DNA of 64,000 bases from Escherichia coli O127:H6 str. E2348/69 (lineage in GTDB: Bacteria > Pseudomonadota > Gammaproteobacteria > Enterobacterales > Enterobacteriaceae). Below are positions 34,179 to 34,658 of the stretch, piece after piece; the stretch's first letter is position 1; each line of letters starts with the position of its first letter. The position numbers and the translations under genes were made by a program. Under the pieces are notes generated by a model, which had not been told where the DNA came from, ran no database searches, and was given only the letters and a program-made list of their open reading frames with translations. The stretch lies in the NCBI RefSeq assembly GCF_000026545.1, contig NC_011601.1; one strand, 5' to 3'.

Positions 34179-34358
34179 GTCTGGCCTCGATAAAATAATG
34201 ATGATGATGTTATCAATACTATCGAAAACAGCCCGAAGCAACGGATTCCTCTATGAAATTATTGCGTGTTGCAGAGGGGATGTGACGGCTGCAAACAAAA
34301 CCAATCCTGTGAGCCTGCTACTATTGATGGATTCATGCCAAAAGCACAGGAGAGCATT

Positions 34359-34621
34359 ATGGGGCAACAAACGCAGCGTAACCGATGTTGGGTTCTGTCC
34401 TCGCGTCCGCATGGCGCGCCGGTTCCTTACGTCTGGTTTCGGTAAATGTGCTCTTTGTCGCACCAGCGCAAGCATTTACAGTTCCGGAAGTGGGAAAACG
34501 TCAATTAAATGAAATCAATCGGATCCGCTACGAACTGGAATTAATGGCAGTTGCTCTGGCTGTCGAAAACCTCACTATGCAAAAAAACGTTGCTATGTTG
34601 TGCCAGCAATACAGCCGATAA
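34359..34621 (+). pseudogene. deletion scar: curA 5' fragment (28 codons) followed by a GntR-type (mcbR-like) 3' remnant
   Basis: ATG 34359 encodes MGQQTQRNRCWVLSSRPHGAPV then stops at 34443-34445; downstream frame ends ...RIRYELELMAVALAVENL...CQQYSR at 34621. Confidence 0.55.
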
Positions 34622-34658
34622 ATAAAATACGCCCGGCAAATACCGGGCTTAAAGATAA

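Follow-up and report, generated by a model that had tools for sequence, protein, structure and literature searches.

What became of curA and mcbR in Escherichia coli E2348/69? In K-12 both genes lie between mnaT and pqqU (formerly yncD). A first-pass annotation of the 64,000-nucleotide stretch of E2348/69 DNA analysed here (the window, whose coordinates are used throughout) assigned them to that site, put the corresponding interval at about 480 bp and read it as the scar of a deletion. We measured the gap between mnaT and pqqU as exactly 480 bp (34179–34658). The gene content ascribed to K-12 was also correct: the K-12 interval (reference sequence L002, to which that of BW25113 is identical) extends over 2116 bp and contains complete copies of curA (1038 nt, plus strand, 345 aa) and mcbR (666 nt, plus strand, 221 aa). 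Equal length of the two intervals, which the annotation had named as speaking against a deletion, is thus not observed.

Both neighbours of the gap are intact. Over 33660–35200 the window is 100% identical to the E2348/69 chromosome record NZ_CP059840.2, in which RefSeq annotates mnaT, a GNAT N-acetyltransferase, on the minus strand at 33660–34178 (Pfam Acetyltransf_1 matched with E = 4e-21). The TonB-dependent receptor gene pqqU, with an ORF of 700 aa, follows on the minus strand at 34659–36761. Gene order is that of K-12 on either side, with patD–yncL–ortT–ydcY–ydcZ–mnaT to the left and pqqU–yncE to the right, so the flanks are conserved as a gene-loss scar requires. The 180-bp divergent region between mnaT and curA is retained as well (34179–34358, colinear with K-12 L002 5520–5699). 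It presumably carries the promoters of both genes; promoter-like hexamers within 34179–34358 were not clearly more frequent than expected from shuffled sequence. In flanking genes, orientation and intergenic promoter region, therefore, the E2348/69 locus matches that of K-12 (BW25113/MG1655 type), and the difference lies in what stands between them: two complete genes in 2116 bp in K-12, as against 480 bp from which 1332 bp and 306 bp are gone.

Pairwise alignment with the K-12 interval, the check that the first-pass annotation had proposed, mapped all the end points. In blastn comparisons the window resolves into three pieces colinear with K-12, the arrangement of residues expected of a gene-loss scar. 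The first, 767 bp in length (33660–34426), aligns through curA nt 68; the second, of 149 bp, derives from the middle of mcbR; and the third, from 34576 on, aligns to mcbR nt 621–666, the spacer that follows, and pqqU. Identity to K-12 is 93–97% over the 767-bp and 149-bp pieces, while the terminal 46-nt piece of mcbR is more divergent in its DNA. What is left of the two genes is a decaying remnant of 263 bp.

The curA remnant (34359–34426, plus strand; K-12 L002 5700–5767; PGAP pseudogene H4J01_RS25420) consists of nt 1–68, that is, 22 codons counted from the start and 2 nt. It ends at junction 1 (34426/34427), where 1332 bp are absent relative to K-12: curA nt 69–1038, a 197-bp spacer and mcbR nt 1–165. 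Fragment A of mcbR follows directly (34427–34575, plus strand; part of PGAP pseudogene H4J01_RS12640). Its 149 bp correspond to nt 166–314 (residues 56–104 plus 2 nt), are 93.3% identical to K-12 L002 7100–7248, and run from the tail of the winged helix-turn-helix through the linker to ~21 residues into the FCD domain. At junction 2 (34575/34576) a further 306 bp are missing from within mcbR (nt 315–620), a loss of 102 codons that is in frame. Fragment B of mcbR (34576–34621, plus strand) comprises nt 621–666, residues 208–221 and the stop codon, and its translation, MQKNVAMLCQQYSR followed by the stop, agrees at every residue with the C-terminus encoded by intact mcbR in a divergent 'E. coli' representative (L012). 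The GntR-like C-terminal frame that the first-pass annotation noticed upstream of pqqU is this piece, which ends at 34621, 37 bp before the pqqU stop codon. The convergent mcbR–pqqU spacer (34622–34658) contains a terminator-like hairpin (stem 34631–34648), followed by a T-run on the minus strand, that is common to both genes. A 2-bp insertion in this spacer accounts for the length difference from K-12 left over once the two deletions have been subtracted.

These results support the earlier reading as essentially right: the loss of curA and mcbR is real. It took the form of two old deletions with two junctions, however, rather than of one, and the 149-bp piece of mcbR between them had been overlooked. 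Chance resemblance does not explain the pieces, since two of them align to K-12 at 93–97% identity, the third has the same translation as in L012, and the whole structure recurs in 1041 complete genomes.

A difference in length can also be read in the opposite direction, with the short allele ancestral and curA–mcbR inserted in other E. coli lineages. We examined the outgroups by scanning one genome per species with PqqU as the anchor. The order pqqU–mcbR–curA–mnaT–ydcZ was found in Escherichia sp. E1V33, E. whittamii and L012, and also in Citrobacter amalonaticus, C. sedlakii, Salmonella enterica subsp. arizonae and diarizonae, and several Enterobacter species. Since the full pair occupies the same site in these outgroup genera, the event was a loss in this lineage and not an insertion elsewhere. 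The short allele, moreover, itself holds fragments of both genes, colinear and in frame, and the deletion is therefore the derived state. Nothing beyond the bare difference in length favours an insertion, which the outgroup gene order rules out and which we regard as next to impossible. The interval is thus very probably a derived, lineage-wide scar left by the loss of curA and mcbR.

How widely the scar is distributed was determined by searching 5426 complete E. coli genomes. The full-length scar allele (at least 80% coverage) was present in 1044, of which 1041 matched the window at 99% identity or higher, and the intact K-12 interval in 4357. Separate 60-mers across junction 1 and junction 2 were each found in 1041 genomes (1042 records in either case). 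Of the deleted sequences, the 306-bp segment was present in 4366 genomes and the curA-3′/mcbR-5′ segment in 4371. These segment and junction counts leave no room for a population with just one of the two deletions. Each junction 60-mer also matched two places on records labelled as plasmids, which are probably mislabelled chromosome fragments.

Scar carriers include E2348/69, UTI89, 536, O25b:H4-ST131 strains, JJ2434, BEN2908, NRG 857C and Nissle 1917, all of which we take to be B2 strains. The B2 label for the scar rests on these named strains and on the tightness of the haplotype, at 99% identity or more. E2348/69 itself is reported to group with B2 ExPEC (PMC4232414). Among intact alleles, the best flank identity to the window was 97.8%, and none reached 99%. 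That the scar is both B2-wide and confined to B2 is plausible on these grounds, though not proven. Six diverse carriers (E2348/69, UTI89, 536, an ST131 strain, MS1170 and Nissle) have scars of identical length with no indels, and the double junction provides a simple, indel-free sequence marker of the scar lineage. In the neighbouring pqqU of Nissle (L077; window-equivalent 35316–35763), about 20 consecutive sites match the alleles of K-12 and of the intact reference L003, unlike those of other B2 strains, which may mean that some 450 bp were exchanged by recombination.

We next consider how the two deletions may have arisen. The lineage to which the B2 strains belong would go back to an ancestor with the usual mnaT–curA–mcbR–pqqU arrangement. 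The 1332-bp deletion took out everything from curA nt 69 through mcbR nt 165, and the 306-bp deletion took out mcbR nt 315–620. Spared were the curA promoter region with the first 68 nt of the gene, a 149-nt internal piece of mcbR, its final 46 nt and the terminator that it shares with pqqU. The remnant would then have drifted neutrally and been passed on vertically to E2348/69, UTI89, 536, ST131, Nissle 1917 and the rest of the ~1,040 complete genomes. Two successive deletions, in either order, or one compound event may have produced this structure; both are compatible with the data.

The first-pass annotation had also raised the matter of microhomology. None (0 nt) is present at junction 1 or junction 2 relative to K-12, and the result is the same with five other intact alleles, all of them references 3–7% divergent from the window that stand in for the true B2 ancestral allele. 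A closer intact ancestor was sought, but of six intact alleles from E. coli and those of three further Escherichia species, none comes near the B2 haplotype in the remnant. The intact sequence contains no direct repeats in register with the deletion end points; short repeats are present, out of register. Deletion mediated by microhomology or repeats, as in replication slippage, was consequently dropped as a candidate. Because both junctions are blunt, illegitimate, homology-independent end joining appears the most likely origin on the strength of the junction sequences.

Blunt junctions would also fit a deletion adjacent to an insertion sequence, most likely IS1, that was later lost, for the distal end of such a deletion needs no microhomology. 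This possibility draws further weight from several unrelated strains in which IS1 lies in or near curA or mcbR, together with deletions. At the scar, however, neither junction retains IS sequence, inverted-repeat ends, a target-site duplication or any foreign bases; an IS normally stays in place after an adjacent deletion, so clean loss of the element would be needed twice. We consider an IS origin distinctly unlikely and retain end joining as the working explanation.

Single-deletion intermediates were looked for in the complete genomes and abandoned: the counts leave no such population, and the odd alleles that we inspected proved to be IS1 lesions. Metagenomes were scanned with a 24-mer from junction 2, which identified 24 contigs; 23 of these also carry junction 1 and are of B2 type, with at least 98.9% identity. 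In one gut metagenome contig (L101; OWOE01007958, 1862 bp, 1.7x coverage), junction 2 is preceded by an intact 5′ half of mcbR. B2-type sequence extends over no more than ~140–245 bp of this contig, the sequence on either side is like that of APEC O2-211 rather than B2, and the switch point falls in a 53-bp stretch common to both alleles. The contig is probably the product of chimeric assembly or of recombination over a short patch and not an evolutionary intermediate.

If the remnant has been free of function since the deletions, its substitutions should reflect that history. Compared with six intact alleles, substitutions found only in the scar lineage number 2 in 519 nt of mnaT and 1 in 180 nt of the 5′ spacer. 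The curA remnant has 3 in 68 nt, all nonsynonymous, and mcbR fragment A has 8 in 149 nt, one of which (T at 34510) also occurs in outgroup alleles. Together the two pieces carry 11 in 217 nt, a density ~10 times that of mnaT. At ~5%, this density is comparable to the lineage-specific divergence at synonymous sites in the flanking genes (0.025–0.064), as expected for neutral sequence of the same age. Polymorphism within B2 gave a similar picture. In the ancestral reading frames of six strains, SNPs in the remnant comprise 6 nonsynonymous and 2 synonymous changes, as against 0 and 6 in mnaT (Fisher p = 0.0097) or 10 and 29 in mnaT and pqqU combined (p = 0.013). It appears from this small sample of six strains that the remnant evolves without constraint.

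The 3′ end of the remnant requires a different explanation. Over fragment B and the adjoining spacer (34576–34658, 83 bp) the window is 17–19% divergent from K-12. Rapid decay of fragment B was considered and rejected, as the intact L012 allele has the identical amino acid sequence at this point; fragment B instead belongs to a different allele class of a polymorphic mcbR end. The last 14 codons of mcbR (window 34576–34621; compared in L002–L008 and L012) fall into at least three allele classes, QQNIAILYQQYNR, QKNVAMLYQQYNR and QKNVAMLCQQYSR. Elsewhere in the interval, the curA-3′/mcbR-5′ segment is 80–90% identical to K-12 in 162 genomes, and the polymorphism of mcbR is far above that of neighbouring genes.

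Can the scar locus still encode either protein? CurA is an NADPH-dependent curcumin/dihydrocurcumin reductase of the medium-chain dehydrogenase type, and a functional copy would need its ADH_N_2 (residues 9–116) and ADH_zinc_N (161–297) domains; 23 of 345 residues are left, all at the N-terminus. In K-12 McbR, Pfam places a GntR winged helix at residues 13–74 and an FCD domain at 84–209, both of which a functional regulator would require. The scar encodes only residues 56–104 and 208–221. The absence of residues 1–55 and 105–207 deprives it of most of the winged helix that binds DNA and most of the FCD ligand domain, respectively. As judged from the coding sequence that remains, neither CurA nor McbR can be made from this locus.

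Two by-product ORFs nevertheless run through the remnant, both on the plus strand. The 28 codons that the first-pass annotation assigned to the CurA N-terminus do form an ORF (34359–34445; MGQQTQRNRCWVLSSRPHGAPVPYVWFR, then a stop) that begins at the curA start. Only its first 68 nt are curA, however; 23 CurA residues are followed by five, YVWFR, that are encoded by mcbR DNA read out of frame. Of the 23 residues that can be aligned, 20 are identical to K-12, the differences being K5T, R10C and A14S. None of the six B2 strains compared interrupts the frame, although positions 14–15 vary between them (S/A/L replacements). The second ORF, a chimera of 78 codons (34385–34621), starts at an ATG that lies within the curA remnant but outside the curA frame, follows the mcbR frame through both junctions and terminates at the native mcbR stop. 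It too is open in 6/6 B2 strains, among which it shows five amino acid replacement polymorphisms.

These frames might suggest that the remnant has acquired a new function, with the curA promoter driving the 28-residue peptide, the 78-residue chimera or a noncoding RNA that ends at the shared terminator. The curA upstream region, start codon and downstream terminator are all kept, the 306-bp deletion is in frame, and both ORFs remain open in six divergent carriers. With only ~8 SNPs in 263 bp, however, open frames are expected by chance, whether or not they are expressed, and the 6:2 ratio of nonsynonymous to synonymous SNPs within B2 differs significantly from that of mnaT. The 78-aa chimera matches no Pfam family at E ≤ 0.01 and is without most of the HTH and most of the FCD. 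No Rfam family was found in the mnaT–pqqU interval, where the sole match, rimP (E = 0.92), is far below the gathering score. A new function for the remnant is very improbable, and we continue to regard it as unconstrained debris of the two genes.

Loss of the regulator has not been accompanied by loss of its target. With a K-12 query (L078 15253–15513), mcbA and its promoter region were found at 80% coverage or more in 5420 of the 5426 genomes, and mcbA is kept in the scar carriers UTI89 and S1-KEN-07-A; McbR has thus been lost while mcbA was retained. In EHEC, McbR represses the LEE regulator ler, a dihydrofolate/McbR brake described in 2026 in a report in which EPEC is not mentioned (PMC13343897). 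As the prototype EPEC strain with a LEE, E2348/69 would be without McbR input on ler from the chromosomal mcbR locus. More generally, gene content predicts that scar strains lack McbR control of mcbA and, where they carry the LEE, of the ler promoter, and that they lack CurA activity.

Might selection have favoured the loss in the B2 ancestor, the inactivation of McbR and/or CurA being pathoadaptive or niche-adaptive? The scar sits on one haplotype in all 1041–1044 carriers, and the locus has been damaged repeatedly and independently, in Escherichia sp. MOD1-EC7003, E. albertii, the Citrobacter freundii complex and IS1-hit E. coli strains. Given the repression of ler in EHEC, the absence of McbR could alter surface and virulence phenotypes. 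Drift or hitch-hiking, however, would fix a single old event equally well in a clonal lineage, recurrent loss fits simple dispensability too, and ~4360 genomes of other lineages, many pathogens among them, keep both genes. Positive selection is accordingly unlikely as the cause. The broader proposition, that losing McbR throughout B2 had functional consequences instead of being neutral, and possibly was selected in the B2 ancestor, seems to us doubtful to a similar degree. Were it true, mcbA would be permanently de-repressed in B2, LEE-positive B2 strains such as E2348/69 would be without the dihydrofolate/McbR brake on ler, and prototype EPEC and EHEC would differ in the metabolic input to type III secretion.

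The loss has a practical consequence. The model strains E2348/69, UTI89, 536, ST131 and Nissle 1917 have neither curA nor mcbR, and because both genes are absent, results on McbR from K-12, APEC and EHEC are not transferable to scar strains. This applies to the control of colanic acid and biofilm via mcbA and to the folate-dependent repression of ler.

Other lesions of the locus differ from the scar in structure. In strains 19SZHZ869Rt, EH08-18-36 and 162.2, IS1 has inactivated mcbR and/or curA in the same interval as in E2348/69. The first two carry IS1 with an adjacent deletion of mcbR and/or curA, and in 162.2 (H41) two IS1 copies break the interval. Unlike the scar, these lesions retain IS1 at the break, have other end points and are confined to one or a few genomes each. 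The IS1 insertions with adjacent deletions, leaving a truncated curA and/or an inactive mcbR (L009 2288–3138, L010 3122–4404 and H41), occur in otherwise K-12-like strains. Further arrangements were observed outside E. coli: E. albertii NBRC 107761 (L071) is without mcbR and has only ~25% of pqqU; in the Citrobacter freundii complex (L020–L023, L045) curA adjoins pqqU without mcbR; and Atlantibacter (L031, L032 and L035) has mcbR and lacks curA.

A structural parallel is Escherichia sp. MOD1-EC7003 (L013 8101–8471, NZ_PTRE01000023.1), in which the interval has collapsed to ~360 bp, as it has in E2348/69, and in which the last ~45 nt of mcbR are likewise retained. Its right end point lies no more than 1 nt from junction 2 of the window. 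In contrast to E2348/69, it has three junctions, its flanks are only 91–94% identical to the window, the curA start is gone while curA nt 400–435 and 529–674 are kept, and the left end points do not coincide. Its last junction, moreover, falls in an ATTATG microhomology, whereas the junctions of E2348/69 are blunt. The MOD1-EC7003 scar is independent of that in E2348/69.

Searches of the literature for mcbR, yncC, curA and yncD with phylogroup terms returned no description of a curA–mcbR deletion; several matches for McbR were false, being the author name 'McBride R'. Parts of the scar are already present in RefSeq, where PGAP lists the same DNA as H4J01_RS25420 ('hypothetical protein, missing C-terminus') and H4J01_RS12640 ('GntR family transcriptional regulator, missing N- and C-terminus') and flags both pieces as incomplete pseudogenes in E2348/69, UTI89, 536, ST131 and Nissle. 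That annotation does not name curA or mcbR, and does not describe the two junctions or their distribution. The terminal 46-nt piece of mcbR goes unrecognised in it, which is why H4J01_RS12640 is marked as lacking its C-terminus. The cadA 'black hole' of pathogenic E. coli and Shigella is a lineage-wide deletion with a demonstrated anti-virulence phenotype. The scar resembles it in that a gene and regulator present in most E. coli have been deleted throughout a pathogenic lineage, and differs in that a phenotype has been demonstrated for cadA alone. The curA–mcbR scar is an ordinary lineage-specific gene loss, the fragments of which have already been annotated as pseudogenes, and it adds a further example to the repeated, independent losses at the curA–mcbR locus across the Enterobacteriaceae.
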